Made by a program: the position numbers and the translations under genes | IMG/VR virus record: IMGVR_UViG_3300042301_004349 | Coordinates: 64,001 to 128,000 of that record | Length of the DNA stretch: 64,000 nucleotides | Direction: 5' to 3' (one strand) | Source: a virus | The notes under the pieces: model-generated | The model's input: only the letters and a program-made list of their open reading frames with translations | What the model was told of the DNA's origin: nothing | Database searches by the model: none | Shown: positions 16,770 through 42,439 of the stretch, in pieces | Layout: the number at the start of each line of letters is the position of its first letter | Position numbering within the stretch: the stretch's first letter is position 1

Positions 16770-17516
16770 TTATGATATTATTCCATACCCACAATTACAA
16801 GAACTTAAGATATTACTATCTTCACAACCATATGTGTAGGTTACTAAGGAATATGCTTTAATATAATAGTTTGTATTTGCTTGGACTGTGAAAGTATAAC
16901 TTAATGATTGAAGTGTTGAAGATGAATTATTAGCTGGTTTAAATATGTTTTGATCACTTATTAAAGTTCCATTAGCAGATACTTCTAAAAATCCGTATCC
17001 TGGAGCTTCCCAACCATAACTCCCTGCATCGGGAGTAGGTAAGCCAAAATTTGCTTGAACATAAACACTATTTCCTACCCTCACCGCAGCATTCATTTGA
17101 GGAGAATATTGTGGTCCTCCAAAGAACATTCCACTTAAACCATTAGAAGGATCTAATAGAAGAGAATTTCCATTTACATACCCAAATAAATCTGTATTTA
17201 GATAAGGATTACCTTCTTGTCTCATCTCAAATAATACTGAAGATGATCTTAATGAGTTTATGTAGTTATAATTGCAAGTTAAGTTTGGAGAAGGTCCTGT
17301 AAAGAAAGTACTACCAATAGTCCAACTACTATTAGGAATAAAACCACCATCAGGTGAATCCCCAGTATAGACATGAACTGAGTTTGCTACTTCCTGACGA
17401 GTTAAACAACGGTTTGTAGCAGGTATTGATTGGCCTGCCTTCAAGCCAAGTAAATTTTCATTTACCATAGCTTGCAATTCATTTCCTGTTATCTGAAAAT
17501 TACTACTTCTAGCCAT
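16770..17516 (-). CDS. putative fibre-tip/adhesin partner protein
   Basis: Translationally coupled (TAATG) to the upstream S74-containing fibre gene; beta-rich. Confidence 0.65.
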   Translation of the reverse strand: MARSSNFQITGNELQAMVNENLLGLKAGQSIPATNRCLTRQEVANSVHVYTGDSPDGGFIPNSSWTIGSTFFTGPSPNLTCNYNYINSLRSSSVLFEMRQEGNPYLNTDLFGYVNGNSLLLDPSNGLSGMFFGGPQYSPQMNAAVRVGNSVYVQANFGLPTPDAGSYGWEAPGYGFLEVSANGTLISDQNIFKPANNSSSTLQSLSYTFTVQANTNYYIKAYSLVTYTYGCEDSNILSSCNCGYGIIS

Positions 17517-20095
17517 TATTTAGATTCTAATTCTTTTATTCTAGCTTCTAATTGTTGAATTGCTTTTATCAACACACCTACTGTTGATGCAACATCCATT
17601 GTATTTTTATTGATTGTTGATAGGTCTGATGGAGTATCTTCAGCAATGAAACCAATATGGGGTGTTTGTAATTCATCGTTTTTATAGCTAAATCTAACTA
17701 CATTAACTTGATTTAATAAAATTAAAGCATCATTAGTATAAGGAATGACATTATGTTTTAAGTAACGAGATGAATTTTGGAAGAAACCATCAGCATAAAT
17801 TGTATTTCCACTTACATATACACTTGCATTTGTATAGGCACCTGTTGAGGTACCGTTTGAAATTACAATTGCTGTATTTGTTGCAGGTGAAATTGCATTA
17901 AATCCAGGACCTGGTGTTCCGGGGTCGCCTTTATCGCCTTTAAAACCTTGGAATCCTCTATCGCCTGGGTCGCCTTTATCGCCTGGGTCGCCTTTATCGC
18001 CTTTAAAACCTTGGAATCCTCTTTCTCCTGGGTCGCCTTTATCGCCTTTAAAACCTTGGAATCCTCTATCGCCTTGATCTCCTTTGTCTCCTTTTTCTCC
18101 TTTGTCGCCTTTAAATCCTTGGTCGCCTTTGTCTCCTTTTTCTCCTTTATCGCCTTTAAAGCCTTGATCACCTTTGTCGCCTTTGTCTCCTTTAAAACCT
18201 TGGAAGCCTCTATCACCTTGATCACCTTTGTCGCCTTTAAAGCCTTGGAAACCTCTGTCGCCTTGGTCTCCTTTATCGCCTTTGTCGCCTTTAAAGCCTT
18301 GGAAACCTCTGTCGCCTTGGTCGCCTTTATCGCCTTTGAAGCCTTGGAAACCTCTGTCGCCTTGGAATCCTCTGTCGCCCTGGTCGCCTTTGTCGCCTTT
18401 ATCACCTTTTAATCCTATGTCACCTTGGAAGCCTCTGTCTCCTTGAAAACCTCTGTCGCCTTGGTCGCCTTTGTCACCTTTATCGCCTTTGAAACCTTGA
18501 AAGCCTCTGTCGCCTTGGTCGCCTTTGTCTCCTTTGAAGCCTTGAGTTCCAATATCGCCTTTATCGCCTTTTAATCCTGTAAAACCTTGGAAGCCTCTGT
18601 CGCCTTGGTCACCTTTGTCGCCTTTAAAGCCTTGAGTTCCTGTACTACCTTGATCACCTTTATCGCCTTTTAATCCTTGAACTCCTATACTACCTTGATC
18701 ACCTGTTGCTCCTACAGTCCCCTGAGGGCCTTGAGCTCCATTTGTACCTGCTATACCTTGAGCACCCTGTATACCAGTATCTCCCCTATCACCTGTTCTT
18801 GCAAATGTAATAATAATGTCTAAATCATTTGTAAATGAACTTACACCTGATAGCCAGGTAACAGGAACTTCAAAATAATTTGTGTTGTGAGTATGAGCTC
18901 CAGTTATTGAAAATAAAGCAAAATTTGTTGTTGATCCTTTTTCAGAAACGGTAAAATGTCCTTTAATTGCTGAAGTTGAATCATCAATTGTTTGTAAATA
19001 GTTGTATACAGAAACACTAGCATCATCTACCTCGCTTATATATAATACTGAGGCTGATGGTAGTGATAAGTTGTTTAATTTTAATTTTCCATTTCCAGGA
19101 ATTGTATTTGATGTATTTGTACTAAATGTATAATCAAAAGCAGCACCACCAAAATTACCTGTTAGACCTTGGTGACCTTGTGGTCCTTGAATCCCCTGAG
19201 CTCCAAATCCCGTTTGGCCTTGAATACCTTGAGGACCTATTGGTCCTTGAGGACCAGGAACTGTAGAATCATTTCCTGTTATACCTTGAAAACCTATATC
19301 ACCTTTAGCTCCTTGGATACCTTGGTTACCTGAGGGGCCTTGTATGCCTTGATCACCTTTTTCTCCTTGGTCACCTTTTATTCCTTGTATACCTTGATTA
19401 CCTGCTGAACCTTGAATACCCTGAATGCCAATAGGGCCTTGTATACCTTGATCACCAGTTGATCCTTGGTCACCTTTAATACCTACAGCTCCTTGAATGC
19501 CTTGAATACCTATAGGACCCTGGATGCCTTGATTGCCTATAGGGCCTGTAGTGCCTTGAATACCAACAGGACCTTGTATACCTTGGTCGCCAGTATCGCC
19601 TTTATCTCCTTGATCACCTTTCACACCTATACTACCTTGTACACCGATAGGGCCTTGTATACCTTGAAAACCTATACTACCTTGATCACCTTTTGCTCCT
19701 GTACTTCCTTGTACACCTATACCACCTTGAGCTCCTGTAGCACCTTGATCGCCTGATGGGCCTTGTATACCTTGGTCTCCTGTGTCACCTTTATTGCCTT
19801 TTGATCCTTGAGCACCTGTTGATCCTTGGACACCTTGAGCTCCATGATCACCTTGACTGCCTGTATCACCTTTAATACCTTGAATGCCTTGAGCACCAAC
19901 GGGACCTACAATACCTTGAGGTCCTATTATTCCTTGGGGGCCAGTTGCTCCTGTTAATCCAGTAGCTCCTTGAGCTCCTTGGGCACCATTTGATACAGTA
20001 ATTTGATCTATACTACCACTCAATTCGACCCAGTTTGTATCCATCTCTTCCCATGTGAGTGGACGACCTAGATCTGATCTTAAAGATAAAGCCAT
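17516..20095 (-). CDS. collagen-like tail fibre with C-terminal peptidase S74 intramolecular chaperone
   Basis: Two long Gly-X-Y tracts; SSRYLKHNV...HIGFIAED...GVLIKAIQQL C-terminus. Confidence 0.85.
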   Translation of the reverse strand: MALSLRSDLGRPLTWEEMDTNWVELSGSIDQITVSNGAQGAQGATGLTGATGPQGIIGPQGIVGPVGAQGIQGIKGDTGSQGDHGAQGVQGSTGAQGSKGNKGDTGDQGIQGPSGDQGATGAQGGIGVQGSTGAKGDQGSIGFQGIQGPIGVQGSIGVKGDQGDKGDTGDQGIQGPVGIQGTTGPIGNQGIQGPIGIQGIQGAVGIKGDQGSTGDQGIQGPIGIQGIQGSAGNQGIQGIKGDQGEKGDQGIQGPSGNQGIQGAKGDIGFQGITGNDSTVPGPQGPIGPQGIQGQTGFGAQGIQGPQGHQGLTGNFGGAAFDYTFSTNTSNTIPGNGKLKLNNLSLPSASVLYISEVDDASVSVYNYLQTIDDSTSAIKGHFTVSEKGSTTNFALFSITGAHTHNTNYFEVPVTWLSGVSSFTNDLDIIITFARTGDRGDTGIQGAQGIAGTNGAQGPQGTVGATGDQGSIGVQGLKGDKGDQGSTGTQGFKGDKGDQGDRGFQGFTGLKGDKGDIGTQGFKGDKGDQGDRGFQGFKGDKGDKGDQGDRGFQGDRGFQGDIGLKGDKGDKGDQGDRGFQGDRGFQGFKGDKGDQGDRGFQGFKGDKGDKGDQGDRGFQGFKGDKGDQGDRGFQGFKGDKGDKGDQGFKGDKGEKGDKGDQGFKGDKGEKGDKGDQGDRGFQGFKGDKGDPGERGFQGFKGDKGDPGDKGDPGDRGFQGFKGDKGDPGTPGPGFNAISPATNTAIVISNGTSTGAYTNASVYVSGNTIYADGFFQNSSRYLKHNVIPYTNDALILLNQVNVVRFSYKNDELQTPHIGFIAEDTPSDLSTINKNTMDVASTVGVLIKAIQQLEARIKELESK
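17905..19990 (-). repeat. collagen-like Gly-X-Y repeat tracts (approx. 17905-18795 and 19160-19990)
   Basis: 9-bp periodic DNA; [15 protein letters not shown] and GIQGPQ units. Confidence 0.9.
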
Positions 20096-20125
20096 AATTA
20101 TTTTTTAATTTGTCACGTATAAATA

Positions 20126-20152
20126 TGAAAGGGGATGATTGCTCATCCCCTT
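20126..20152 (-). terminator. probable intrinsic terminator
   Basis: AAGGGGATGA-GCAA-TCATCCCCTT 10-bp stem, adjoining the ATATTTAT motif. Confidence 0.75.
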
Positions 20153-20177
20153 CTAAAAACATATATTAAATATTTAA

Positions 20178-20636
20178 TTAACAGTCTTCGTAGCTTCCTG
20201 TTCCAAATACTTCAATAACTTTTTCTTTTAATTTAGCATATCCAAATTCGAAAATGTTTGCTTCTTCTACTGCAGTAAAATCAGGAACCATTACTGTTAC
20301 ACTTTCAGAAACTGTTGTTTCTACTGTTGTATAAGTGATGCTACCAGATTCACCAACACTTTGAGAAGGCATGTTTACTGTTCTAAAAACAACACTTTCA
20401 GATGGAACTCTTAAATCAACATATAAGCTTTCACCAATTTGTTGGTTACGAGCAGTCATACCACCCATACCTGGGTAAAGGTTTGATCCTGAAGTTGCTG
20501 CTTCTTCGTCTAAAAATAGTTGAGTTTGAAAATTAGCATATCCGCCTTTTTGAATATTGTAATTAACAATACGTAAATATGCTTCGCTTGTAATACCTAA
20601 ATCAGTACCAATTTGAGTTGTGATTTTAATTGCCAT
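20178..20636 (-). CDS. hypothetical fibre-associated protein
   Basis: 152-aa ORF with ATATTTAT motif upstream. Confidence 0.7.
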   Translation of the reverse strand: MAIKITTQIGTDLGITSEAYLRIVNYNIQKGGYANFQTQLFLDEEAATSGSNLYPGMGGMTARNQQIGESLYVDLRVPSESVVFRTVNMPSQSVGESGSITYTTVETTVSESVTVMVPDFTAVEEANIFEFGYAKLKEKVIEVFGTGSYEDC

Positions 20637-20677
20637 GTTTAATTTGCTTTATGTTTTATAATTTGCGTGTATAAATA

Positions 20678-21268
20678 TTAACGATAGTGTTCTCCCCCAA
20701 GCCACAACACAAAAGATCTACGAGTTCCAACAGTAACTGGTGAAACACGGTGCATCATATATGAAGGAAATATAACTACTGTGCCTTTACCGCGAGGTGC
20801 GGTGATATGATCTTTACCCCCTTGCCAAATATCTAAATCTCCACCTTCATATTCGCTAGGATCGGATAATTGGACCGTAATAGACACTTTACGGAGCGAT
20901 AACATCCCAGGCCCAATGTCTTGATGCCAAATATAATGTCCACCTTCACTAGCATAGTATTCAGTGTATTGTATTTGTTCTGGGGCCGAATGTAAGTCAA
21001 AATCCCATAAATTTTTATTAGCTTCAGCAGCCATATCCATTAGTTTGTTATATAGCCAATTCCATTTGAAATTTTGTGGAACCCATTTAACAGAAGATGA
21101 ACGTGATTCTTTATCATCACCACCAACTGTAGTAGCTTTAATAAAATCAATATCAGCAACATCTTTGTATATTCTATCTAATTCTTCACTATCAAAACCA
21201 TTATTAAAATAGTAATAATTTTGTAGATCAGCGTGTTTCTTAGGAAATAAATAACCAGTTTGTACCAT
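20678..21268 (-). CDS. 2OG-Fe(II) oxygenase, prolyl-4-hydroxylase-like
   Basis: WHQD (HxD)...RKVSITVQL..YEGGDL...FPSYMMHRVSPVTVGTRRSFVLW. Confidence 0.9.
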   Translation of the reverse strand: MVQTGYLFPKKHADLQNYYYFNNGFDSEELDRIYKDVADIDFIKATTVGGDDKESRSSSVKWVPQNFKWNWLYNKLMDMAAEANKNLWDFDLHSAPEQIQYTEYYASEGGHYIWHQDIGPGMLSLRKVSITVQLSDPSEYEGGDLDIWQGGKDHITAPRGKGTVVIFPSYMMHRVSPVTVGTRRSFVLWLGGEHYR

Positions 21269-21277
21269 TTTTATAGT

Positions 21278-21850
21278 TTATTCAGTTTCAAAAATATTCA
21301 TTTTACTTGAGTATGGCTCTTCAGCCCATAAATTTATAGCAATCGCTCTTCTAGTTCCTGTTAAAACAGTATCTACTCTATGAGGTACCTTCCCAGCATC
21401 AAATATAATTAGACGATTTGGTCTACATAACACAATATCAGGAGGGTTAGATTCACCATCTGTATACACATTTAAGGCACCACCTGTGAATTCTGATCCT
21501 ATTGGGTAATAAACACATCCAACTGTTGGTGACATTCTATCTCCTGTTGCTTTTCTATAAGCAACATCATCATCGTAATGCATTTCTAAATAGTTTCTAA
21601 ATCTTCCATTTGGGTCTGCTTCTTGTACGCCTGTCCAATATTCAAATCCATCTATTGTATATAGTTTATTAATTGGACAATTATTTTTCCAAATATATTC
21701 TATTAGTTTCTTTTTAGTAGTATTAACTTCACTATTCCACCAACCATTCCAATAGTAATAAACACCAGGATCCTTAAAAAAGGTAGTGTCATTAGCTATT
21801 TCATCTAGTAAGGTTTGATCTGTTATAAAATCATCAAATACTGTTATCAT
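21278..21850 (-). CDS. 2OG-Fe(II) oxygenase
   Basis: MHYDDD (HxD)...VYYP...GGAL...NRLIIFD...HRV...GTRRAIAIN. Confidence 0.85.
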   Translation of the reverse strand: MITVFDDFITDQTLLDEIANDTTFFKDPGVYYYWNGWWNSEVNTTKKKLIEYIWKNNCPINKLYTIDGFEYWTGVQEADPNGRFRNYLEMHYDDDVAYRKATGDRMSPTVGCVYYPIGSEFTGGALNVYTDGESNPPDIVLCRPNRLIIFDAGKVPHRVDTVLTGTRRAIAINLWAEEPYSSKMNIFETE

Positions 21851-21861
21851 TTTATTTTATT

Positions 21862-23676
21862 TTAGGGATTATAAATATAGTTTACATATCCTTCATCATC
21901 ACCAAATCTACTTTCAACCCATAAAGGATGTTGTGGGTTTTCTTTATAAGCCCAATCTTCCATTCCTAATTCTTCAAATCGTTTTGCAATTCTCTCATTA
22001 TAATGATACATAATTGTTCTTACTCTACGTTGAATATCAGCACGAGATAAATCGTGTGTATTTTGTCCTGAGTGGTTGTTATAGATGAATTGAATATAGC
22101 CAAGTTTAGGTATTTTACAAATTTTAGTATGTAAAAATGTTCTAACTATTAATTCATAATCATCAGCTATAGCTAAATCTCTATTATGTCCACCAACAGC
22201 AAAATAAGTATCTCTTCTCCAAGCACGAACGTGATTTGGAACACCAACAATATGTCTTATTGTTTTTGGATTAATATTTTGTGTAATTACAACATCCCAA
22301 TTATAACCTCTATATTGTTCTTTTCTATATTTACCATATCCAAAAGCAAAACCATCATCATATGTTAATGATTCCCATTTTTCATTTATTTCAACACTAT
22401 CATTGAAAAAGAAACCAGCATCTGGGTATGCTTTTGTAGCATTAACTAGATCCATTGTACAGTTGTCTGTTAATAAATCATCATGGTCTAATTCTGCTAG
22501 TAAGAATCCTCTTGTTAAGCAAGCTGCTCTATATTTTGATTCCCCAATAATACCACCTGTTTTTTCTCTAAAATCATATACTCTTACTCTCGGATCTCGT
22601 CTAGCTATTTCTTCAGCTATCTTAAGTGTTTTACCACCATCAGATGAATCATTAACCAACACCCATTCCCAATCTTCGTACGTTTGTTCAAGCAATGAAC
22701 GAAAAGTATTCCATAATTTATTTCCAGTATTATATATTGGGGTAAAATATGATACTAAATGATTATTTGACGCTGATAGCATTTGGTTCATAGCTACATT
22801 ATAAGCTATATCTCCATTTTCAGCATCATCTTTTTCAACATTTAACCATTTTTTTCTTACTTCAAGAGGTTGAGTAGCTAAATTAGGAAATTCTGAAAAG
22901 TGTTTTCCAATAGTAATAATTGAATCTGGTTTGAATGTTGTTAGCAATTCTTCAATTTTAGTATCATTTGGTACATTTAATACATTTAAACTTGTATCTT
23001 CATATCCTAAATGTTTAGTACTTTTCAATTCTGTTGTACCACCTATATAAAGTACTTTTGGTACTCTAGCTTTTTTAGGTTGGGTTAAACGATTATAGTA
23101 GCAAAGTTCTGAATGGATGAAATGGAATTTATCAGAGAATTGTTTGTATAAATTTTCAATAAATACTCCATCACCGCAATATCCACCTTCATATCTACCT
23201 TGTTTATATAGACTTTGTTTAATAACATATTGAGCTGAGTCTATATGTTTTAATTTCATATGTTCAGGACCTACATTTCTAACTTCTAAGCCAGTAAAGT
23301 CCTTTTTATCAACAAATTGTTCAAACACAAATGCTTCTTTATCAGGATTTGCCTCTATTTCTGATTTAATTGTATTATAGAAATCAGGATGAATAATATT
23401 ATCATCATCTAATATTACAATATAATTTTCAGGGTATAATTTTTCAATTATATCGCTTAATTGAGGGTATAAATAATCACTACCATCTCCTTTTATAAAA
23501 TGGAATCTAGTACTTGGAGATTGCAATTCACTTAATAATTCAGCATCAATGTCTTTTAATGTTGTTGTATCAAAAATGATATGCCAAACAACAGTTATAG
23601 GACTAGGGAATACTGTATTCTTAATTGTTAATAAATTCTGCTGTCGCGTACAACGCGTTAATATATGCATTACCAT
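21862..23676 (-). CDS. two-domain GT-A (GT2-like) glycosyltransferase
   Basis: N-terminal domain with ILDDDN; C-terminal domain FTPIYNT..SLLEQTYEDWEWVLVNDSSDG...ELDHDD...ADDYEL. Confidence 0.88.
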   Translation of the reverse strand: MVMHILTRCTRQQNLLTIKNTVFPSPITVVWHIIFDTTTLKDIDAELLSELQSPSTRFHFIKGDGSDYLYPQLSDIIEKLYPENYIVILDDDNIIHPDFYNTIKSEIEANPDKEAFVFEQFVDKKDFTGLEVRNVGPEHMKLKHIDSAQYVIKQSLYKQGRYEGGYCGDGVFIENLYKQFSDKFHFIHSELCYYNRLTQPKKARVPKVLYIGGTTELKSTKHLGYEDTSLNVLNVPNDTKIEELLTTFKPDSIITIGKHFSEFPNLATQPLEVRKKWLNVEKDDAENGDIAYNVAMNQMLSASNNHLVSYFTPIYNTGNKLWNTFRSLLEQTYEDWEWVLVNDSSDGGKTLKIAEEIARRDPRVRVYDFREKTGGIIGESKYRAACLTRGFLLAELDHDDLLTDNCTMDLVNATKAYPDAGFFFNDSVEINEKWESLTYDDGFAFGYGKYRKEQYRGYNWDVVITQNINPKTIRHIVGVPNHVRAWRRDTYFAVGGHNRDLAIADDYELIVRTFLHTKICKIPKLGYIQFIYNNHSGQNTHDLSRADIQRRVRTIMYHYNERIAKRFEELGMEDWAYKENPQHPLWVESRFGDDEGYVNYIYNP

Positions 23677-24605
23677 TCTACATCAAAGAAAAATAGGTGA
23701 AAGAATCTAGCATTTTCAATTTCGTCTCCGAAATAACCTGTTGCTGCGTGTATTGCTTTTGAATCAAACATAACTAATCTATTGTAAATGTTAGCTATAC
23801 TATCTACTAATTCGAAGGTTGATTTATCGTAGAAATTCATTTCACTACTTAATCCCTTAAAGGTATTATAATACTCATCTCCTCCTGGTTGATCGAACCT
23901 AGTAGCTCCTGTTATTTTGCTTTTATATGTAGCTGTACCTGTTTGTAATGGGGCATCTGGTGTTAAATAAACCATTGCAGCATACGTTTGAGAATCAACG
24001 TGATAAACTATTGGATCTTGAGAGGTACAATATTGAAAAACACCATTTGCATATGATGAATGGTTCCAATTTGTAATTTTCTTACCTAAAATTTCTTCAA
24101 ATTTTTCTTTAGTACCGTTTAGAATAAATCTATCGTAACTGCGTTTGCCTTTATGATAACCTGATTCTTTGAAATCAAGATTATTCATAGCATATTCTCT
24201 TACTAAATCAGGATTGTCATAAAAATTATCTACAACGACAACACCTTTTTTAGCTGTTTGAATAAATCCAGAATGGTATACTATCCATTTTTTAAAAGAA
24301 TCAATATTATCTACTACTGAATTGTCTTGTAATATGATTCCAAGAGGTTTGTTTATGTCTTGTTCTGTAAGAAGAATTTTAAATTCAACTAGATCTGTTG
24401 GGATGTTAGGGTAAAATTCCTTTACATCTGGTCTTGATTCAAATCCAGGAGAAATAATTTCTTCACCAATTGTGAATGCTTTAATAGGTTGTGTTGCGTG
24501 TGATATCCATCCTTTAATAGTGTAAACATTATTATTAGAGAAAACATCATCAATGTACCACAACACACCATCAACATTAGTTAAATGATTAATATGATCG
24601 GCCAT
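23670..24605 (-). CDS. 2OG-Fe(II) oxygenase-like protein (DUF6445-like) with extra N-terminal domain
   Basis: VVVDNFYDNPDLVREYA...YHVD...YLTPDAP..GT...YNRLVMFD..IHAA..YFG....RFFHLFFFD. Confidence 0.8.
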   Translation of the reverse strand: MADHINHLTNVDGVLWYIDDVFSNNNVYTIKGWISHATQPIKAFTIGEEIISPGFESRPDVKEFYPNIPTDLVEFKILLTEQDINKPLGIILQDNSVVDNIDSFKKWIVYHSGFIQTAKKGVVVVDNFYDNPDLVREYAMNNLDFKESGYHKGKRSYDRFILNGTKEKFEEILGKKITNWNHSSYANGVFQYCTSQDPIVYHVDSQTYAAMVYLTPDAPLQTGTATYKSKITGATRFDQPGGDEYYNTFKGLSSEMNFYDKSTFELVDSIANIYNRLVMFDSKAIHAATGYFGDEIENARFFHLFFFDVEW

Positions 24606-24622
24606 AAAAGTTATTGTTTTAT

Positions 24623-24654
24623 GGAATGTACGATAAAACTATTTAATTTCCAAA
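24623..24654 (-). promoter_or_regulatory. possible Bacteroidota sigma-A-like promoter for the oxygenase/glycosyltransferase cassette
   Basis: Coding strand TTTG-N20-TACATTCC versus consensus TTTG-N19-21-TAnnTTTG; last two bases mismatch. Confidence 0.35.
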
Positions 24655-24658
24655 CCTT

Positions 24659-27600
24659 TTATTTATTATCTACTAAGTAGTTAATTTGTTGTTTTAGATC
24701 TTCGATTTGTTGTTGTTGTTCTTTAATACCTTCAATTAATAGAGGTACAATTCTATCATACTTTACAGTAAGATAATTTTCACCAGTCTTAGATACTACT
24801 TCTCCTGTTTCAGCCACACCTTGCATATCAAATGGAGCTAAAGAAACAGCTTGAGGCAATACAGCCTGAATTTGTTGAGCAGACACACCCGCTTGTTCTT
24901 TTTGGTTTGTATAACCAAGACTACGTGCTAATTCATTTTCCACATATACAAATCCTTCTAATGATTTAATCTTTTCTATAGCATCTGTAATAGTATTTAT
25001 CTTAGTTTTTAATCTTTCATCAGAATAATATGCTGTAACATCTCCTGTACCATAATAGTTACCACTTCCAAAGTTACCACCACCCGCATTCAAACCACAT
25101 AATGATGAACCATTAATTACTTGGTGATGCCATGTTGCTCCGTTACCACAGTTCCAAACTACACCATAACTTTCAGTCATTCTTGTTCCTGTAGAGTTTC
25201 CTATTTCTGCACCAGATCCTGAAAGAACCATAGTTCCCGCTAAACGAAAGTTAGCTGTTCTTACTATATCATTAGATGATATAGCTCCATTTACATCAAG
25301 CTTATATGCAGGAGTAGTAGTGCCTATGCCTACTCTACTAGGGTAAGTATTTGTAGCACCAGATACGTTAAGAAGTATATTTCCAGCATGGTCTCTAACT
25401 CTAAACCCTTCATTAGAATGGGTACCTATAACAGTCCAATACCCATCCTGCATAATATACTTATTCAGGTCAGCATTATCAGCTGTTTTGAATACAACTT
25501 TACCTGATGTTCCACTTGAACCTGATTCAAATATATAATCACCACCCTGAGTAATTTTAAAGTAGTCTCCACGAAAACCTGTACCAATACTAAACTCGTT
25601 ACCTGCTGAACCTGTATGTCCAATAGACCAAGTAGTAGGGCCATTAAAACCTATTCTACCATAGTATTGACCACCACCATAATCGTTATACCCAAGTCTA
25701 ATTCTAGTGTCTCCACTAGGTGTAGTAATTGTAAAAGGTCTTGCATTTGCACTAAACAAACCATCAGTTGTATACCCTGAAAATGTTGCATTAAATCCTA
25801 TATTAGATGCCCCATTAACAATGTACCCAGGGCCGTTAGAAAGTTGACTAAGATTAGTAAGATTACCACTATGCCACATTGTTACCCAACCACCCCATGT
25901 ACCTGCATCAGCAGATCTCATATATAATCTGTTCCCACCTGTATCAAAAAATAATTGTTGGTGATAATTGCCCGGGTGAGTATCTATTTGTAATAAAGCA
26001 CCCCCATTATGAATAACAGTTGGTCTATTACTCCAATCACCCGTAGATCCTCTGTATAAACCTGTACCATTAAATGCATTTACATTAACACCAGGTTGAG
26101 CAGCTTGATATAAAGAATCAAGAATCCCATACCCACTAAGTGTTGTAGGTTTTGATGAAACATTAGCAAATGATATACCAGTTATATATCCAGGCCCGTT
26201 GCTTAATTGGTTAAGATTAGTAAGATTACCACTATGATATACTGTGTTACCATTCCAGTTAATGCCTGTTCTAGTAATTCTAGCTATCTCTTGGTAAGTT
26301 CCAGTTGAAGCAGATTTAAAATACCAACCTGTTGTGTCATTTGCTTCAGCAAACTCTATAAATGTTGTTTGGTGGACCGCTGTAAATGTAGGACTAGAAG
26401 TAGCACCTGTAACAGATGCTCTAAAAGTCATCATATGGTTATTGTTTTCATAACCAGCTATTATACCATATGTATTTACACCCCCTGTACTTACAGTTAA
26501 TCTTCCTCCTGTTATTTGAAGGGACCCCGTTAATGTTCCTCCTGAAAGTGGTAAATAATTGCCTGGTGTAAAATTACCACTATGCCAAACATCTACATAA
26601 GAAGAATATGCTGTTCCTGAACCAAATGTCTGTTGCCATATCCTCATTCCAATTCCACTCTTAAGAAACATTACTAAGTTATCAGAACCTCCAGAACTAT
26701 CAGAATAAGAACGTAAATGTAAATAATCAGCATAAGGAGCACTATCATTATTAGCCCAAGATGTAAACCCAAATCTTAATTCAGCTGCATTATCTTCAGA
26801 AGGAGATATTGTTCTATTATCTCTAGAAGATAATCTACCTGAAGCACCAGATATTGTTGCAGAAGAAGTAATATATCCAGATGGATTACTACTATTATAA
26901 GGAGTATATCCTAAAGCTGTAGTAACTTGACTACTTGTTATACCTGTAAGATAAGATTGATTAGTAACCCAAGTTCTAGTAGCTACTTCATTTCCTCCAT
27001 ATCTTAATATACCACCATTTGATTGTAGGTCTAAATCAAATGAAGCAAAATCACTTGTTCTAGCTGCTTGAACTGCAACTTTATATCCACCGGCAGCTCC
27101 AAGAGATGCTACATATAAATGTACATCAGACCCACCAATCCTTGCATGAGCTACAGAATCTGAGTTTAGAGAAGATGGTCTTGTTAATCCATTACCTATA
27201 TTTACTCTACCATCTAGATTAAGAGTTGTAGATGTAGATGCCCCACGTCCTGTAACAGTAGCTAAAGTTTCACTTGCTGCTAAACCTGAAATATTTGTTT
27301 GGTCTCCTGTATTTGTACCACTTAAGTTTGCAGCACTAAGATTACCTGTAAAGGCAGCAGTACCATCTAAAGCCATACTAAATCTTGTTTCAGAATCTAA
27401 TGCTGCCCAACTTCTAGCTATTTTAAATTTATCAGCATCTGAATTATCAATACCCATTGACCACCCAATAACATCACCTATGTCAAAAGATAATATCGGA
27501 TCTCCACCTGTTGCAGTGCTTGTTCTTAAAGAAAGAACTGCATTTGATGTACTAGTAGTACCAGTATTATATAAATAAATTACTGGAACATTAGTATTTG

Positions 27601-28744: not shown

Positions 28745-28818
28745 TATTTTATACCTGGATTATTCTGGTATAAATATTAATTCTTAAATGTTAGTTAACA
28801 AATAATAATATATTGTTT

Positions 28819-29199: not shown

Positions 29200-29211
29200 A
29201 TATATAAATAT

Positions 29212-33114: not shown

Positions 33115-33162
33115 TATATTGTTTCCTTATTAGCTATTTAATATAAATATGAAGATTACTAT

Positions 33163-33492: not shown

Positions 33493-33507
33493 AAAATTTA
33501 ATATTTT

Positions 33508-36500
33508 TTAAACCCAATATCCAACACAATATAAAGCAATGTGGTGGGTACCACCACTAAGTCCATGTCCTAGTGTATAGTATACTGTACCATTTGCATT
33601 TACATTTATAATACCATTATGCCATGAACCATAATAATGCATAAAATTGGTCATATTTGTTCCTGAAGCGTCTCCATCATGTTCTAAAACAAATGAACCA
33701 TGATATTGTGGAGTAAAAGTATTACTAACACCAGGCCAAGCAGCTCCTGGTCCGCCCCAAGAAATAACACTAACATCATTAGCTAATCCAAACCAAGATA
33801 CTGCATGGTCTCCTTGACCTGCCCCTGAACCATATCCTGTAATGTGGTACCAACCATATACTAATAATGCTTTAGCATTTGAAGGAACACCACTAAAATC
33901 TGTTACAGCAAAATTACCTTGTGTTTGACCACTTACTGAAAATGTTTTTGTAGCTACTGAAGTTAATTGTATAAAAGTATTTGCTTTATAGCTACCACTA
34001 TTTGAAATTGTTCCACCATTTACTGTAACATCTCCACCAGAAGCAATAGTTACTCTAGTATTAGGTCCATTAGTATTAAATTTAATACCAACACCCACAC
34101 CAGATTCAATACCTAAATCTCCAGATATAATATCTGAGAAAACATAATGTGTTTTTAAGTTTGTAGCATTGTTAATTCTTATATCAGTATTTGATGTTTC
34201 TGCGGTGCCAAGTGTTAAACTTCCAGCAATTCCAGCATCACCTAACCCATTTAAAGTCATTGCGGTTAATGGTGGTTGATCTTGAGCTGCATTGCCTTGG
34301 TATACTCTGAATCTTAAAACATTTGCTGAAGGGCCACCAGCAGTAAGGACAGCGTCTATTCCTATCCATCTATTATTATTAACACCAATATCTGAATTGG
34401 CCATGTATTTAATAAGATTATCATAGGTTCCATCAAATCCATTATGTGTAGCTTTTATTATGTCTCCACCAGAGGTAATGTGCAAACGTTGAGAGGCATT
34501 AGTTGAAAATCTTAAATACCCATTTGCATTATTATCCATATTAAGATTAAGACCATTGCTTGTAATATCCATTACAGAGGTTGCGTTAGCAAACCATCTC
34601 ATTAATCTGTAACTACCTGAGTAAAGTGTGTTAGCAAAGAAGTATGCTACATAATTGCTTGAATTATTATGTACTTGAAGTATTGCATCATTTTCACTAA
34701 CTGTATTAAGTAATAATCTACCATTTGCAGTGATTTGTGCAACACTGCTGTTTGTAGTATAAGAATAAAAATGATAAGACCCTGTATTGTTTGCACTTCT
34801 TAAACCTATATACCAATTATCTGATCCTCCTGTTGATAATTTCCAACCGGTTTCAAAAGAAGTACTTGATCTATTTACTCTTGGATAAACATTAGCATTA
34901 GTATTTGATATTAACATTACATCGCCAAATCCACTTGTATTATTACCTACACCTAAACTATTTGCAGTCACCGATGAACTAAATGTAGCTGCACCTGTTG
35001 AGGTCATTGTGAATACATTGGCACCACCGCCATTAACTCTGAAGTTTATACCTTGACCTGTTGCAGCATTTAGATATATGCCATCAGTAGCATCATTAGC
35101 AGCAAATATTCTATTAAAACCGTTTGAATTAGTACCAAATGCAAATGTTCTATATGCACCACCAAATGTTTGGTCTGTACCGATTACTGTTCCATTTATA
35201 ATAATATTCTCTGTAAACCTACCCGTTCCACTCACATCAAGTTTATAAGAAGGATTTAATGTTCCTATACCGACATCACCATTAGTACCTTTAATTACTA
35301 TGCCTAAATTAGCACCTCTTAAATGTAAATCAGCATAAGTACCTCCAGTTTGTTTGTAAGAAACTATTTGAGCAGTACCATCTTGTTCTTGGATAACTAC
35401 TCCAGTTGAGGTCATATCAAAAGCTGCTTGACCCATTACATGGAGAGTTCTAAGTGGGTTTGAAGTACCTATACCAACACTTCCATCTAATAATACTAAG
35501 TTATAAAGATTAAAAGAATTATTTGCTGAGTTTGGTGTTACAAATTGAGCGCCTCTTCTAAATAATATTTCTCTACCATCTCCACTAAAGGCACCATTAG
35601 CATTTCCTGAAGGATCATATCCAATTGAGATTGTAGTAGAGTTTGATGTATCACCAAGCATTACAACTTTATAAGTACTTGGACTATATCCCCATCCTGT
35701 ACCTTTTAAAGCTTGAAAATCTACACTATTAGCTCTTAAACCTATTGTGTTTAAAACTTGAAGTTGGTAAGAAGATGCTGTAATACCAACACCAACATTA
35801 GTTCCATTATCAAAAATTTGACTATTTCCTATAGCACTACTACTTGTAAACTTAGCTACATAATTAGTAGTACCTGATACTCCTGGTCCTTGTGTTCCTT
35901 GGAAACCTTGAGCACCAGTTGCACCTTGAATACCTTGAGCTCCAGTTGTTCCTTGAGCACCTGTTGCCCCTTGAGCACCAGTACTACCTTGAGCTCCTGT
36001 ACTTCCTTGTAATCCAGTAGGTCCAACAGAACCTTGTAATCCAGTAGCACCTTGGGACCCAGTAGCACCTTGAGCGCCTGTATCTCCTTGATCGCCTTTT
36101 GCTCCTTGAGCACCAACACTACCTTGTAGTCCAGTAGGTCCTTGAGAGCCAGTTGCACCTTGATTACCTGTAGCTCCCTGAGGTCCAACAGCACCTTGAG
36201 CACCTGCTGCTCCTTGATTACCCTGAGATCCTATTTCTCCTAAATAATTGTCTATTTCTATTGTATCACCAGCACTAGCAGCATTTGTTAGTACTACTGT
36301 TGTACCATTTGTTGCAGTATAATCTACTCCTGATGTTTGTTTAACACCATTCCAGAATACATCTACTAATCCAGCAGTATAACCACCAGGTACTGTAAAT
36401 GTTGTTTGACCATTTGTTGCAGTAAATATATTTACATTTCTAGCTGATGAGCTTACTGCTCCTTGAGCACCAGTTGCACCTTGATCGCCTTGATTACCTT

Positions 36501-37443
36501 GGAATCCTTGGTCGCCCTTAGCACCTTGGAAGCCCTGGTCGCCCTGTGCTCCTTGGTAGCCTTGATCACCTTGAAATCCAAATCCTTGAAAACCTTGATC
36601 GCCTTGTGCTCCTTGGAAACCTTGGTCACCCTGTGCTCCCTGGTAGCCTTGGTCACCCTGTGCTCCTTGTGCACCTTGATAGCCCTGGTCGCCTTGAGCT
36701 CCTTGGTAGCCTTGATCACCTTGTGCACCTTGATAGCCCTGGTCGCCTTGAGCTCCCTGAATGCCTTGAAAACCTTGGTCGCCTTGTGCACCTTGTGCCC
36801 CAGTTGCTCCTTGAGCTCCATCTACTCCAATAAATCCATTTGCTCCTTGAGCACCTGCTGGTCCTTGAGGACCCATCATACCACCTACAGTAGCTACTGC
36901 TTTACCTGCTACAGGCACTGCAAATGTAACAACTAAATTGTTAGTACTTACTGCTGTTATAGTAGAAGGAATAATAACTTGATTGTTATTATCGTATAAT
37001 TCGATTACGGGATATTGTTCACTTAAATTATGATTAAATGACCAAGTTGTTGCTGACGCGAATGTTTGTTTAGCGGTTCTTCCATCTCCTGTATTAGCAG
37101 CTACATTATCTACCCATACAGCACCATTTGCTGTTACTTGTAGAATTTGTCCTACAGATCCTGTACTATTGGTATAGTCACGGACTGTTAATGGTAATTT
37201 TACACTACCACTTAATTCTAAAGATCCTGTAATTTGATGAGATGAACCTGAGATTATAAGTGATCCTGATATTTGGGTGTTTGTTGTAAGTATTTCTTCA
37301 ATACTTTCACCTGCTGATCCACTTTTCTCAAAATAAATTTTACCGTCGTAGGTATTCATTGCCAATTCACCCAACTCCAACTGCGATGTAGTTGGTTTGT
37401 TGCCAGTGGTTGCACTCCTACGTAACTTAACAATTTGCGCCAT
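33508..37443 (-). CDS. collagen-like fibre protein, Mtd_N-like N-terminus, no S74 domain
   Basis: MAQIVKLRRS...[15 protein letters not shown]; Gly-X-Gln tracts approx. 35885-36875; NVGIGT-type repeats. Confidence 0.85.
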   Translation of the reverse strand: MAQIVKLRRSATTGNKPTTSQLELGELAMNTYDGKIYFEKSGSAGESIEEILTTNTQISGSLIISGSSHQITGSLELSGSVKLPLTVRDYTNSTGSVGQILQVTANGAVWVDNVAANTGDGRTAKQTFASATTWSFNHNLSEQYPVIELYDNNNQVIIPSTITAVSTNNLVVTFAVPVAGKAVATVGGMMGPQGPAGAQGANGFIGVDGAQGATGAQGAQGDQGFQGIQGAQGDQGYQGAQGDQGYQGAQGDQGYQGAQGAQGDQGYQGAQGDQGFQGAQGDQGFQGFGFQGDQGYQGAQGDQGFQGAKGDQGFQGNQGDQGATGAQGAVSSSARNVNIFTATNGQTTFTVPGGYTAGLVDVFWNGVKQTSGVDYTATNGTTVVLTNAASAGDTIEIDNYLGEIGSQGNQGAAGAQGAVGPQGATGNQGATGSQGPTGLQGSVGAQGAKGDQGDTGAQGATGSQGATGLQGSVGPTGLQGSTGAQGSTGAQGATGAQGTTGAQGIQGATGAQGFQGTQGPGVSGTTNYVAKFTSSSAIGNSQIFDNGTNVGVGITASSYQLQVLNTIGLRANSVDFQALKGTGWGYSPSTYKVVMLGDTSNSTTISIGYDPSGNANGAFSGDGREILFRRGAQFVTPNSANNSFNLYNLVLLDGSVGIGTSNPLRTLHVMGQAAFDMTSTGVVIQEQDGTAQIVSYKQTGGTYADLHLRGANLGIVIKGTNGDVGIGTLNPSYKLDVSGTGRFTENIIINGTVIGTDQTFGGAYRTFAFGTNSNGFNRIFAANDATDGIYLNAATGQGINFRVNGGGANVFTMTSTGAATFSSSVTANSLGVGNNTSGFGDVMLISNTNANVYPRVNRSSTSFETGWKLSTGGSDNWYIGLRSANNTGSYHFYSYTTNSSVAQITANGRLLLNTVSENDAILQVHNNSSNYVAYFFANTLYSGSYRLMRWFANATSVMDITSNGLNLNMDNNANGYLRFSTNASQRLHITSGGDIIKATHNGFDGTYDNLIKYMANSDIGVNNNRWIGIDAVLTAGGPSANVLRFRVYQGNAAQDQPPLTAMTLNGLGDAGIAGSLTLGTAETSNTDIRINNATNLKTHYVFSDIISGDLGIESGVGVGIKFNTNGPNTRVTIASGGDVTVNGGTISNSGSYKANTFIQLTSVATKTFSVSGQTQGNFAVTDFSGVPSNAKALLVYGWYHITGYGSGAGQGDHAVSWFGLANDVSVISWGGPGAAWPGVSNTFTPQYHGSFVLEHDGDASGTNMTNFMHYYGSWHNGIINVNANGTVYYTLGHGLSGGTHHIALYCVGYWV

Positions 37444-37513
37444 ATCTATGGTCTGTTTTTAATTTAGTATGTACTAGTATATCCTTCGATCTATATAGAT
37501 CGTGTATAAATAT

Positions 37514-40500
37514 TTACTTAGAAGCTAATTGTGCCTCTAAATTTGCTATTTTTGCATTTAATTCTTTGATTGCTTCGATGAATAAACCTGCCATGTTGCC
37601 ATAAGCTACTGAATAGTATCCTTTCTGATCTTCACTTACTGCTTCTGGTAGTACGTTTAATACGTCTTGTGCAATAACTCCAGTATGACGTTTATTTTTA
37701 TCATTTATATCATTACGAGTAAAGGTCACACCACGAATTGCTTTAACTTTTTCTACAGCGTTTTCTATTACTTCTACATTATTTTTAACACGAGAATCTG
37801 AGAATGCAGTGATGTCTTGGAAACAGAAAAATGGATTAACAGATACTACAGTATTACATCCTAAATTTAATGCATAATCGTGACCACCGTTTGCATTATT
37901 ACCAAGTAAAACTTTTCCACTACTCCAACCTAAAAATAAAGTATTACAACTACCCCATGCTGAACTAGCCTCTAAGTGCCTTACAATATATACCGTATTA
38001 ACGTCACTTCTTACAAAAGATGAAGCATGTAATCCGTCTACAGTATCGGAATTACCAGCTGAGTTTGCATAGTTTACTGATTGGCTACCAATATTAGCAC
38101 TATGTATAATTTGTCTCCAAGCATACCAAGAACCAGCATAACCTGCTCTCCACCTTAAATCTGTACTGTTGTAATAATCTCCTTGTATTTGCCACATAGT
38201 ATCTCCACCACCCAAATGTAATACAGGAGCATAGCTTAAGTTTCCACCATTACCATTCTCATTTCTATAAACAGCTGTTCCTCCATTGTTTACATTCATA
38301 GAACCATTGCCTAGACCTTGTAAATTCAATCCAGCTACATATGAACTAGCTGTAACATACCCAGAGTTATTAGTAAATTGGGATACGTTCATATTGGATA
38401 ATGAACCTGCAGAGCCTGTTATATTTATATCCCATGTTCCATTATTATGAACAAATCTATAACCAGTGTTACCATAATTTACAGCTCCATTAGAAAGAAT
38501 CTTTATACCCCCATTAGCCCAATCCCCATTTTTAGCAATCATAAATTCATCAGAGGCCATAGTAGCAACTTGATACCAAGCACCACCTGAAACACCACCA
38601 GAACGACCCATACGTACACCGGCACCATTGGATGTACCATTCCAAGTAGCATGCATGTTATTAATCATTACGCCTGGTTCTGCTCCTCCACTTGCCCCAA
38701 GTGTGCCATAAGTTACCCCGTCACCCCAGTTATTAGATGCTGTAAAAGAAAGTCGTGTCCAACCGCCGCTTGTAGTAATGTTAGTTTGCCAAACACCATT
38801 TAATGTAGTATTCCCACTAACTGTTAATCCACTATATACAGTTGTTAATCCACCACCATAACCTAAACCTACTGGTCCATTGTGGCCGTAATTTAACCAT
38901 ATGTTTCCTCCAGAACTAACGTTCTGGATTGTATCAGTTAAAGATGCACTGCTTATTTGAATATTTCTAAACACAGCACCACCTGCATTATTTGATGATA
39001 TACCTGTACTATTAGGATCTAAATAAAAAGTAGTATCGTTTGAGTCATAAAATATTGGAGCTCTAAAATCAGCTGCTGCTTGGATAGGAGTAGTTCCCCA
39101 CCCAATATCTCTACCCATTAATATCCTTCCGGTTGATGACTGGTAGATAAATAAAGATTCTACAGAATTTCCACTATCATGAATAGCAAATTCATACTCA
39201 TCAGCACAGTTAGCAAGAATACCAGCAGTTACACTACTTGCCCAAGAACCATTCAAAAAATTAAAATTATGGCTTGTAGAACCTAATATTAATTGACCAG
39301 TATAAGAAGGTTGATAGTAACTTCCTAAAACAATGTTATTCATTCTAGAAGTACTAGCAAAATCTCCGTAGTATCCTGTATCATTTGAATCATAGAATAT
39401 TGGTGCTCTAAAGCTAGTAGGAGCAGCAACATAACCACCTTCTCCATAATAAATTTGCAAGGCTCCATATCCACCCCCACCAGCATTGTTATGTGTAGTA
39501 AAATTATAAGCTAAACCATTAGCTCCTTGAACATCTTGCCATGCCCTAGACATAAATGTCATAGTGCTATAATCATTATTAATTACACTATTAAATCTAA
39601 TCTGAGTAGCATCGGATGCTTGTAAATTATATGCAACAGTTGATGTAGCAGAATTTCCTGAAGTATTATCAGAAACTCTTGCACTATCTACACGAACACC
39701 ATATGTGGTATTACCATTCCAACCCATAAGAGTTGGATAGGAAGCAGTCCAAGCAACTGTGGAATTGGTTTGGCTTACACCACCCCCACTTGGGGATGTG
39801 CCTTGAGAAGCATCAAATATAACATGATTATTACCATAATTTTTCCATGCCATTAAACCTATAACATTGTTAATAACAGTAGAATCATTCCAGTTTGATT
39901 GACCTCTTGAAACTACGTTACCTGTTGCTGTTATACTCCAAGTACCACTTGCACCACCCCCTGTTAGAGTTGGAGAATAAGAATTGTAATTAGCAGAAGA
40001 AAGCATAGTAACCCAAGATGACCAATCACTACAACAGTCTCTTAAAGTTCTAAGTGATAATGTAGCACTTGGATTATGCCATGAAGCAGCAAATTCAAAT
40101 CCTCTTCCTGCTGTTACAAACTGAGCAGCTAAATCATAAGTATATGGGCTATTGGCACCACCATCATATGCACCATATATAGCAAGACCACTAGATATTT
40201 TAGTAGTTCTATCATTGTTATAACTCACACCTGTTCCTAAAACAGTTGCAGCATTTGCACCTTGATCGCCTTTAAAGCCTTGGAAACCTCTGTCGCCTTG
40301 GTCGCCTTTAAAGCCTTGGAAGCCTCTGTCGCCTTGGTCTCCTTTATCGCCTTTGTCGCCTTTAAAGCCTTGGAAACCTCTGTCGCCTTGGTCGCCTTTA
40401 AAGCCTTGGAAGCCTTGGTCGCCTTTATCGCCTTTGTCGCCTTTAAAGCCTTGGAAACCTCTGTCGCCTTGGTCGCCTTTGAAGCCTTGGTCTCCTTTAT

Positions 40501-42439
40501 CGCCTTTGTCGCCTTTAAAACCTTGGAAGCCTCTGTCGCCTTGAGCTCCAACACCACCTTGATGGCCTTGTTGTCCAGCAAATCCTTGATCGCCTTTATC
40601 TCCTTTAGCACCTTGAGATCCAGTTGCACCTTGCAAACCAGTATTACCTTGTGGTCCTATTGGGCCAGTTGGTCCTTGGTTTCCTTGATCGCCTTTAGCT
40701 CCTTGTAAACCAGTAAAACCTTGATCGCCTTTTGTTCCTTGTATGCCTTGAAAACCTTGGTCGCCTTTAGCACCCTGAACTCCATTAGTGCCTGCTGTAC
40801 CTTGTAAACCTGTTGCACCCGTTGCTCCTTGAAGGCCTGTTGCACCTGCTGATCCTTGAAGACCAGTGGGACCTGTTGGGCCTATATCTCCTTGGGCTCC
40901 ATTTGCACCTGCTGATCCTTGAAGTCCTGTTGGGCCTGTAGCTCCAATAGAACCTTGTAATCCAGTTGGTCCAGTAGTACCTTGCAACCCAACAGGACCT
41001 ATTGAGCCTTGTAATCCAGTTGGGCCTGTTGACCCAGTTGGGCCTTGAAAACCTTGATATCCATCACCTTGGTATCCTTGAAAACCTCTATCACCTTGAT
41101 CTCCTTGAAAACCTTTATCACCCATAGCACCTTGGAAGCCTTGGTATCCATCACCTTGATATCCTTGAAAACCCATATCGCCTTGATATCCTTGAAAACC
41201 TTTATCTCCTATTGTTCCTTGAGCGCCTTGATTTCCTAAGGCTCCTTGATCACCTTGTGGGCCTTGAGAACCTACTACTGCACCAACACTAGTTAATACA
41301 TAAGAATAACTTGATGTTCCTTCAGTATACCACCCAATATTGTGATTACCATTTGATTGATCTTTAACATAGATTTTAACAATCATTCTGTTTGTAGGAT
41401 CAATTACTGTTGAAGGTAAAACAATATCAACAAACGTTTCAACGGTATTTATAGAATCCATCCAACCCACAGCAGCCATACCTGATGTAATTAAAGGTCC
41501 TATTGCTGTACCTGAGGAGTTGGCTAATTGAATTGTTACATATGTGTCTATATTATTACCTTGGGAATCTCTTAAATAATGAAGATGAAATCTTTGAGTT
41601 CCTCCAGGAATAATAGCAAATCCTAATTGAGGTGTTAAAAATTGACTTATTAAAACAGGGGTTGAACCATTTGTTGAAGTAGTTACAATTTGTTCTGGAG
41701 AAGTTGATGGGTCTTTTGATAATACTTTATAAGGAGAAATATCTGATGATTGACTCTGATTAAAATAGTATGTTTGACCTGCGCTTATACCTCCACTACC
41801 TTGATTACCTTGAAAACCTTGATCGCCTTTGGCTCCTTGTATACCTTGATCGCCTTTGGCTCCCTGAAATCCTAAAGATCCTTGAGGGCCTACTATGCCT
41901 TGAAATCCTTGATCACCTTTAGTTCCTTGAATACCAATTGAACCTTGAAGGCCTATTGGTCCTTGAATACCTTGAGCACCAACACTACCATTAAATCCTT
42001 GGTCACCTTTATCGCCTTTTTCTCCCTGTATACCTATTGGGCCTTGAATACCTTGAGGGCCAATTATACCTTGCAAACCAGTAGCTCCTTGCAAACCAGT
42101 AGCTCCTTGAAGACCAGTTGGACCTATATCTCCTTGAGGTCCAGTTGGACCTTGGGTTCCTATAGGGCCTATGGCTCCTTGAGGGCCTGGATCTCCTATT
42201 GAGCCTTGTGGACCTAATGGACCAGGACCTCCTGAAGGACCTGTTGCTCCAGTTGCTCCTTGAGCTCCTGTACCTCCTGTTTCACCAAGAGTTACAATAG
42301 TTTCAACACCGTTAACGTTTTTCTTGAGATAAACCTTACCATCGTAAGTATTCATTGCTAATTCACCTAGTTGTAGGTCAGCAATTGTAGGGATCTTTCC
42401 AGGCGTAGCTGTTCTACGCAGAGTAATAAGACGAGACAT
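37514..42439 (-). CDS. giant collagen-like fibre with Mtd_N-like N-terminus and C-terminal S74 chaperone
   Basis: LRRT...[15 protein letters not shown]; Gly-X-Y tracts approx. 40258-41275 and 41795-42275; FSDSRVK...GVIAQDV...[14 protein letters not shown]. Confidence 0.88.

Follow-up and report, generated by a model that had tools for sequence, protein, structure and literature searches.

A DUF6445 oxygenase and a double GT-A glycosyltransferase linked to Gln-rich collagen-like fibre genes in a T4-like phage

We analyzed a 64,000-nucleotide stretch of DNA from an uncultured aquatic phage (positions 64,001 to 128,000 of IMG/VR record IMGVR_UViG_3300042301_004349; hereafter the window), in which five collagen-like fibre genes surround a cassette encoding three 2-oxoglutarate (2OG)-Fe(II) oxygenases (OX1, OX2 and OX3) and one glycosyltransferase (GT). 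The cassette is not a single unit. OX3 and the GT2 subfamily of the transferase form its core, and OX1 and OX2 are accessory. This OX3/GT module is real and conserved, and its dependence on collagen is one-way. Judging from gene context, we hold with moderate confidence that the core serves the optional glycosylation or hydroxylation of the phage's own Gly-X-Y fibres. The fibre and cassette open reading frames (ORFs) all lie on the minus strand, where the initial annotation of this DNA had placed them, with the order OX3, GT, OX2, OX1 between fibres 2 and 1:

37514..42439, minus strand: fibre 5, collagen-like, 1641 amino acids, 168 Gly-X-Y triplets, C-terminal S74 chaperone
33508..37443, minus strand: fibre 4, collagen-like, 1311 amino acids, 87 triplets, no S74 match
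29212..33114, minus strand: fibre 3, collagen-like, 1300 amino acids, 63 triplets, S74
24659..28744, minus strand: fibre 2, collagen-like, 1361 amino acids, 71 triplets, S74
23670..24605, minus strand: OX3, N-terminal beta domain (residues ~1-105) followed by a DUF6445 (Syn9 gp52 family) 2OG-Fe(II) oxygenase; core enzyme
21862..23676, minus strand: GT, 604 amino acids, with a GT-A domain (1-200), an alpha/beta linker domain (206-300) and a GT2 domain (305-604); core enzyme
21278..21850, minus strand: OX2, PF13640 oxygenase; accessory
20678..21268, minus strand: OX1, PKHD/prolyl-4-hydroxylase-like oxygenase; accessory
17516..20095, minus strand: fibre 1, collagen-like, 859 amino acids, 191 triplets, S74, highest in Lys-Gly-Asp

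ORFs, Pfam matches, catalytic triads and structural modelling confirm the arrangement first proposed for this locus, in which five Gly-X-Y fibre genes surround three 2OG-Fe(II) oxygenases and a transferase with two GT-A domains. Together the five fibres hold 580 Gly-X-Y triplets, and the longest runs per fibre comprise 36-99 triplets, compared with 10 or fewer in shuffled sequences (500 per gene). All five match the Pfam Collagen family and four of them end in a Peptidase_S74 chaperone. Long Gly-X-Y tracts, a trimerising S74 chaperone and a position within the tail module, which are features of tail fibres, are all present in the window. Across the five fibres the Y position is occupied by Gln (49.8%), Lys (15.5%) and Thr (12.2%), and by Pro in 7 of the 580 triplets (1.2%), in line with the earlier description of Y as mostly Gln, Lys or Thr and rarely Pro. 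The X position is mainly Asp (24.8%), Ala (19.1%), Phe (14.1%) and Pro (8.6%). Prokaryotic collagens, including unmodified ones, often have Gln at Y (PMC3368898).

The association of the core with collagen was followed across viral and bacterial records, which are often fragmentary and related; the following counts are uncorrected for kinship. When records were picked by OX3, collagen tracts were found in 40 out of 48, including all 34 records above 35 kb; the eight without them are fragments of 33 kb or less. When records of the phage family were picked by their structural genes, 7 out of 36 were collagen-rich, and neither the GT subfamily nor a close OX3 occurred in any of the other 29, the Flavobacterium phage immuto included. 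GT2 genes in general are present in 32 of 43 records, independent of collagen. OX3 and the C-terminal GT2 domain are mostly encoded by adjacent genes, and a natural GT2-DUF6445 fusion family comprises 88 viral proteins. In the cultured cyanophage DSL-LC02, OX3 and two other transferase genes are flanked by a collagen gene on one side and a fibre gene on the other. Other independent recurrences beside collagen were found in S-SCSM2R, in locus L016, in Thiothrix and Thiolinea, and in bins of Saprospirales, Porticoccaceae and Balneola. The Thiothrix and Thiolinea chromosomes bring together OX3, GT and a Gly-X-Gln/Thr gene, and in three genomes (G043, G061 and G083) GT alone, with no OX3, lies directly beside Gln-collagen. 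The initially suggested co-occurrence of the cassette with collagen genes holds only for the OX3/GT core. The usual home of OX2 is a replication block. No collagen was found near the DUF6445 genes of distant clades (Methylophilaceae, Streptomyces and Acidobacteriota).

Some of these loci have further peculiarities. The DSL-LC02 protein adjoining OX3 is a fusion of TPR, FkbM methyltransferase and radical SAM/SPASM domains (L768:9794-11947). In Thiothrix and Thiolinea (L695:7998-11822 and L690:7914-12707, respectively), OX3, a GT2-methyltransferase, a gene of 164 amino acids and the collagen-like gene adjoin dnaE. Larger collagen-less relatives (L287-L291 and L294-L295, from genomes G007, G012 and G008) have S74 fibres rich in Ser/Thr, and behind these come large islands with oxygenases, GTs and a carbamoyltransferase-like gene.

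OX1, OX2 and OX3 differ clearly from one another, with pairwise identities of 30% or less, and all have the HxD...H iron triad and the 2OG-binding Arg. OX3 matches PF20043 in Pfam, its end overlaps the start of GT by 7 nucleotides (nt), and its triad H202-x-D204/H286/R300 is invariant in the alignment. The model of OX3 (predicted local distance difference test, pLDDT, 84) revealed the beta-rich N-terminal domain of about 105 residues, which had been overlooked at first; with this domain as query, nothing came up apart from unnamed Atlas clusters and a weak Ig-like lead (0.79). Structurally, modelled OX3 stands closest to protein prolyl hydroxylases, namely OGFOD1 (Z 13.8, root mean square deviation 2.6, 160 aligned residues), PHD (Z 12.9) and the prolyl 4-hydroxylase (P4H) of Pseudomonas (Z 12.8). 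The lysyl hydroxylase of L230 (Z 10.8, rank 28) and LH3 (Z 9.9) score lower than the top match, and AlkB-type structures rank low. The PHROG annotation of the cassette oxygenases ('minor coat protein', 'DNA endonuclease V') was discarded as unreliable. We found no paper on DUF6445, although the subscription literature was mostly out of reach and novelty is therefore unproven.

In the transferase, Pfam detects only the C-terminal GT2 domain (PF00535, E 6e-20), which bears a conserved P-x-H-x-R-x-W motif. The N-terminal GT-A domain is supported by the invariant residues D90-D92 and by the model (residues 1-233 versus GlcAT-P, Z 16.9, root mean square deviation 3.7, 195 aligned residues). Further invariant acidic residues are D397/D399-400 and D505-506, and the enzyme shows the DxD motif and catalytic Asp typical of GT-A transferases. 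The middle alpha/beta domain of about 100 residues had also escaped the initial annotation. The GT model (pLDDT 77) matches bacterial GT2 enzymes and two-domain polymerases, with K4CP (Z 21.7), heparosan synthase (21.5), GalT1 (20.4) and TarS (19.3) among its matches, compared with rank 47 and Z 11.4 for LH3/ColGalT1. As modelled, GT is thus far nearer to bacterial GT2s than to LH3 or ColGalT1. Among P4H, PLOD and L230, the enzymes proposed for comparison at the outset, the prolyl hydroxylases do stand near modelled OX3, whereas L230 and LH3 rank lower for OX3, and LH3/ColGalT1 ranks low for GT. Fold likeness in itself says nothing on the substrate of OX3 or GT. Pfam finds no TPR in the window GT; related cassettes carry GT2-TPR genes, as well as extra GT2, methyltransferase and sugar-epimerase-like genes, and such additions fit a capped glycan. 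In one contig (L008:4636-6349) the GT ortholog is broken into ORFs of 126 and 434 amino acids, the cause being either a frameshift or an assembly error, and the fibre 1 gene of that contig is likewise interrupted.

To compare candidate target residues, we surveyed 96 OX3-bearing loci holding 40 triplets or more. Gln at Y makes up 8-81% of triplets in all 96 loci and is the only residue that is never absent. Every other residue falls to 2% or less in some locus; for Y-Lys, Y-Pro, X-Asp and Y-Thr this is so in 45, 87, 42 and 3 loci, respectively. Both enzymes are retained in G154, where 519 triplets are almost all GAQ, GFQ or GIQ. Conversely, three near-complete relatives (G014, G018 and G027) have GSS/GTS collagens with 0-1% Gln at Y and are without OX3 and GT. 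Among phage records, OX3 or GT occurs in 9 out of 46 anchored on Gln (Gly-X-Gln pattern) and in none of the 39 anchored on Gly-X-Thr/Ser (P-value 0.003, Fisher test, uncorrected for kinship). On account of these observations Gln is the best candidate, whether it is itself modified or provides the context for recognition, and the residue that the initial annotation had offered as an alternative target becomes the best supported one. That Gln is itself the modified residue is a tentative assignment. Thr is a possible alternative, as it is present in most loci and has a precedent in SgtA, and we consider it the less likely modified residue; it reaches 12% at Y in the window and about 0-2% in G154 and L420. 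We found no paper on hydroxyglutamine or on other Gln chemistry in collagen, with the subscription literature largely out of reach. We dropped the notion that OX3 needs a Gln-dominated collagen, because mixed Ser/Gln fibres (8-20% Gln) also carry it. The GSS/GTS fibre relatives (L781 and L297 from G027, with more than 1,000 triplets, L176 from G014 and L182 from G018) bear other islands of GTs and oxygenases, and possibly represent a separate Ser/Thr glycosylation system.

The accessory oxygenases follow collagen composition loosely. OX1 and OX2 both score above the PF13640 cut-off. The OX2 triad H91-x-D93/H157/R167 is invariant in the alignment, and in each of the seven family-B contigs that were read, as well as in G147/G172, an OX2 ortholog of 50-75% identity is placed between recA and dnaB. 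This location, in a phage family other than that of the window, is that of most orthologs examined. OX2 is found inside the cassette only in the clade of the window and in L649. Where OX2 occurs together with readable collagen, in three lineages (the window clade, L649 and G147), Y-Lys is 15-35%, and related records without OX2 are mostly Lys-poor. OX2 thus loosely tracks Lys-Gly-Asp. Lys and Asp are inseparable as its target, because 85 of the 90 Y-Lys residues in the window fibres precede Gly-Asp. Lys-Gly-Asp is the pattern of a stabilising charge pair in collagen, and the motif may simply be that. The OX2 profile gave only weak matches in the PDB (E 0.05 or worse), and PLOD was absent from the sequence and profile search results for OX1 and OX2. 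OX1, with the triad H115-x-D117/H173/R183 and catalytic motifs of the P4H/PHD type, matches PKHD hydroxylases (E 1e-6) and a Phytophthora P4H (E 0.0014), and stays under the NCBIfam YbiX cut-offs. It loosely tracks collagens with Pro at X (15 of 21 loci versus 1 of 13); the canonical X-Pro-Gly substrate, with Pro at Y, is confined to the seven triplets mentioned above. In a large-phage family other than that of the window (L643-L648, L650 and L626), whose DNA polymerase B is split, OX2 may be present or absent at a site bounded by recA, with a gene of 100 amino acids, and dnaB. OX1-type genes also form tandem arrays, and in two lineages (L075:223-4748 and L298:10952-15162) five to seven different 2OG oxygenases stand in tandem, Syn9-like, with the OX3/GT pair downstream of them. 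Close relatives also retain a small gene that separates OX1 from fibre 1:

20178..20636, minus strand: uncharacterized protein of 152 amino acids

Several observations weigh against modification of the fibres by the core. OX3 and GT are each found without the other: S-CRM01 has GT and Gln-collagen without OX3, and G021, G057 and DSL-LC02 have OX3 without GT. Because each occurs without its partner, a fixed two-step relay from OX3 to GT is not required. Neither enzyme is present in 37 of the 46 Gln-collagen phage records, most of the complete ones among them, and since most of these phages do without both, any modification of the fibres is optional. The same count, together with the melting of an unmodified phage collagen at 42 C (PMC3368898), renders doubtful the initial suggestion that modification serves to stabilise the fibres. 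The OX3/GT pair lies away from fibres in G154, G078 and L011, and the records themselves are fragmentary and related. The structural ranks of OX3 are nearly tied with those of small-molecule enzymes (HalB, Z 12.4). As to the target, Gln at Y is widespread in prokaryotic collagens anyway, and it amounts to 9% or more in 26 out of 91 Thr/Ser-anchored loci. As to the accessory enzymes, G153 has a fibre with 17% Lys and no OX2, for which reason we dropped a strict rule connecting OX2 with Lys. The link between OX1 and X-Pro was lost after correction for kinship, when it came down to four independent pairs only (P-value 0.25).

OX3 is preceded by an expression signal of its own:

24625..24654, minus strand: putative promoter of host-sigma type (function inferred), TTTG-N18-CGTACATT, lying 19 nt ahead of OX3

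Similar elements precede OX3 in L001, L004, L005 and L007, and they are unlike the motif found ahead of structural genes. The TTTG-N18-CGTACATT pattern occurs eight times on the coding strand and once on the other strand. Most structural genes (window 7082-62408) have the motif ATATTTAT 10-70 nt ahead of them, with 57 occurrences on the coding strand and 5 on the other; read in reverse complement, ATATTTAT gives the core of the T4 late promoter. A distinct promoter for OX3 suits enzymes that are made before their substrate, but also a host-directed role.

On the basis of these data, we propose that the enzymes would be expressed from their own promoter, probably before or along with the fibres, and would work on Gly-X-Gln tracts that are still unfolded or have just folded. 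OX3 would add a hydroxyl and the C-terminal GT2 domain would attach the first sugar. The target would most likely be Gln at the Y position, hydroxylated or amide-glycosylated, and otherwise a neighbouring Thr. The N-terminal GT-A domain, with further GTs and methyltransferases in relatives, may extend and cap the glycan. OX1 and OX2 would be interchangeable accessories, with X-Pro and the Lys or Asp of Lys-Gly-Asp as their possible targets. The modification would probably serve to shield the fibres or to tune their surface with regard to proteases, solubility and host binding, and not to form the helix. More speculatively, DUF6445 and the PxHxRxW GT2 might represent a widespread prokaryotic collagen maturation system that hydroxylates or glycosylates Y-Gln of Gly-X-Gln, with exchangeable oxygenases matched to Pro or Lys/Asp content.

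The main rival explanation is that the enzymes modify a host surface glycan, such as lipopolysaccharide or capsule, or make some glycan or small molecule destined for another substrate, and that the fibre neighbourhood is a host-recognition island. The nearest GT structures (K4CP, heparosan synthase and TarS) indeed act on carbohydrates or teichoic acids, the putative cassette promoter is of host type and differs from those of structural genes, and GTs in the fibre islands of pelagimyophages have been interpreted as modifiers of the host O-chain (Zaragoza-Solas et al., PMC7029224). Islands of oxygenases and GTs also lie behind the fibres of collagen-less relatives; however, they never contain the GT subfamily or a close OX3, whereas in the chromosomes of Thiothrix and in unrelated phages of small size the OX3/GT pair has a collagen-like gene as its neighbour. 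We regard a host glycan as an unlikely substrate, as it leaves the tie to Gln-containing collagen unexplained. Alternatively, the genes may be passengers in a recombination-prone island that share no substrate with the fibres. The shifting gene content of close relatives would agree with this, as would the OX2 orthologs between recA and dnaB, the tandem arrays of OX1-type genes and the presence of GT2 genes regardless of collagen. Passengers could account for OX1 and OX2 at most, given that the OX3/GT linkage recurs on unrelated replicons and as fusions, and this explanation is improbable for the cassette.

Still less probable is a core chemistry like that of PLOD or L230, in which Lys of GDK or GFK is hydroxylated and the hydroxylysine then glycosylated by the double GT, as the initial annotation had envisaged. 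GT is kept where Lys is absent (Y-Lys of 2% or less in 45 of the 96 loci), it can stand beside collagen without OX3, and it is nearer to bacterial GT2s, with LH3/ColGalT1 and L230 far down the structural ranks of GT and OX3. L230 does provide a viral precedent (PMC9546862), and OX2 occurs in three lineages rich in Y-Lys and is missing from Lys-poor relatives. Nonetheless, G153 is a counter-example, and the predominance of Y-Lys before Gly-Asp is a charge-pair pattern in which Lys and Asp are inseparable; OX2 may be an add-on hydroxylase of either residue. Finally, an oxygenase and a GT could together hypermodify DNA in the manner of TET/JBP, since phage GTs that glycosylate DNA are known (PMC12619734) and OX2 orthologs sit in replication blocks. 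Yet none of the three oxygenases has a TET/JBP or AlkB match in Pfam at E 0.01, AlkB-type structures rank low for OX3, separate FolE, QueC and QueD genes suggest 7-deazaguanine chemistry instead, and the linkage is to collagen. DNA is therefore a most unlikely substrate.

The system described here works like two known ones and is a member of neither. As in mimivirus L230 and R699 and in human LH3 (PLOD3) and COLGALT1, a 2OG-Fe(II) oxygenase and GT-A domains go with collagens, which are virus-encoded in mimivirus (PMC9546862), and the GT2-DUF6445 fusions add to this likeness. The difference is that there is no homology beyond the fold, the structural ranks are low, there is no family match, and the collagens linked to OX3 are often Lys-free. 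In Clostridioides difficile, the GT-A transferase gene sgtA likewise lies beside the collagen-like gene bclA3, and SgtA glycosylates the collagen region of BclA3 directly (Thr O-GlcNAc), with no prior hydroxylation (PMC7157674). SgtA is a GT2-TPR protein, whereas the window GT is a double GT-A enzyme of another subfamily; moreover, the window has oxygenases, a phage fibre and a tie to Gln rather than to GPT. From gene neighbourhoods, Iyer et al. (2010) predicted bacterial operons of dioxygenases, sulfotransferases and collagen or tail-collar proteins, which share the logic of hydroxylation followed by conjugation on co-encoded collagen-like proteins (PMC2938197). They named the Syn9-gp52 family as well, tying gp52-like genes to halogenase and secondary-metabolite clusters and not to collagen or GTs; the oxygenases of their operons are of the beta-hydroxylase/PhyH type and the conjugation is sulfation (PMC2938197). 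Mycobacteriophage-encoded GTs decorate virion proteins (Freeman et al. 2023, via PMC12619734), and in the account given there the targets are the C-termini of capsid and tail-tube proteins, with neither collagen nor oxygenases. We found no paper on phage collagen with oxygenases or GTs, within a literature whose subscription part was mostly out of reach.

To our knowledge, phage collagens are generally regarded as unmodified. Phage 2OG oxygenases are usually filed as metabolic genes of unclear use. The unstudied DUF6445 family and GT2 subfamily gain a specific, testable candidate substrate, and cultured systems are available in the cyanophages DSL-LC02, S-SCSM2R and S-CRM01 and in Thiothrix eikelboomii. 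Should the enzymes indeed target Gln, this protein modification would be new and would add a second way of tailoring collagen, with relevance to virion shielding, host recognition by aquatic phages and recombinant collagen engineering.

The whole virus record measures 171,171 bp, with 33.6% GC and a terminal repeat of 127 nt. The head, fibre and contractile-tail genes of the window are those of a T4-like myophage, with the following context genes:

49451..51046, minus strand: T4-like major capsid protein, 57.8% identical to that of immuto
11944..13656, minus strand: tail sheath, in the contractile-tail module downstream of the fibre array
555-4109: tail-region protein of 1184 amino acids, C-terminal domain Amidase_2; probable lysin of the baseplate

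By capsid protein, the closest cultured relative is Flavobacterium phage vB_FspM_immuto_2-6A (Immutovirus; immuto above), and because of this relationship the host of the window phage is likely a member of Bacteroidota. The order of structural genes is similar in the two phages, but immuto lacks collagen, PF13640 oxygenases, OX3 and any GT of the window subfamily. Gene content also differs between closer relatives of the window phage. Outside the window, at about 48.8-54.3 kb of the same genome (G000; L809:802-6312), genes for FolE, QueC and QueD/PTPS are grouped, which suggests synthesis of preQ0 or 7-deazaguanine. A second sugar cluster, also outside the window (L808:1029-5505 and L808:18484-19344), encodes two GT4 enzymes, one GT25 and a methyltransferase, together with an NAD-dependent epimerase as a possible source of donors.

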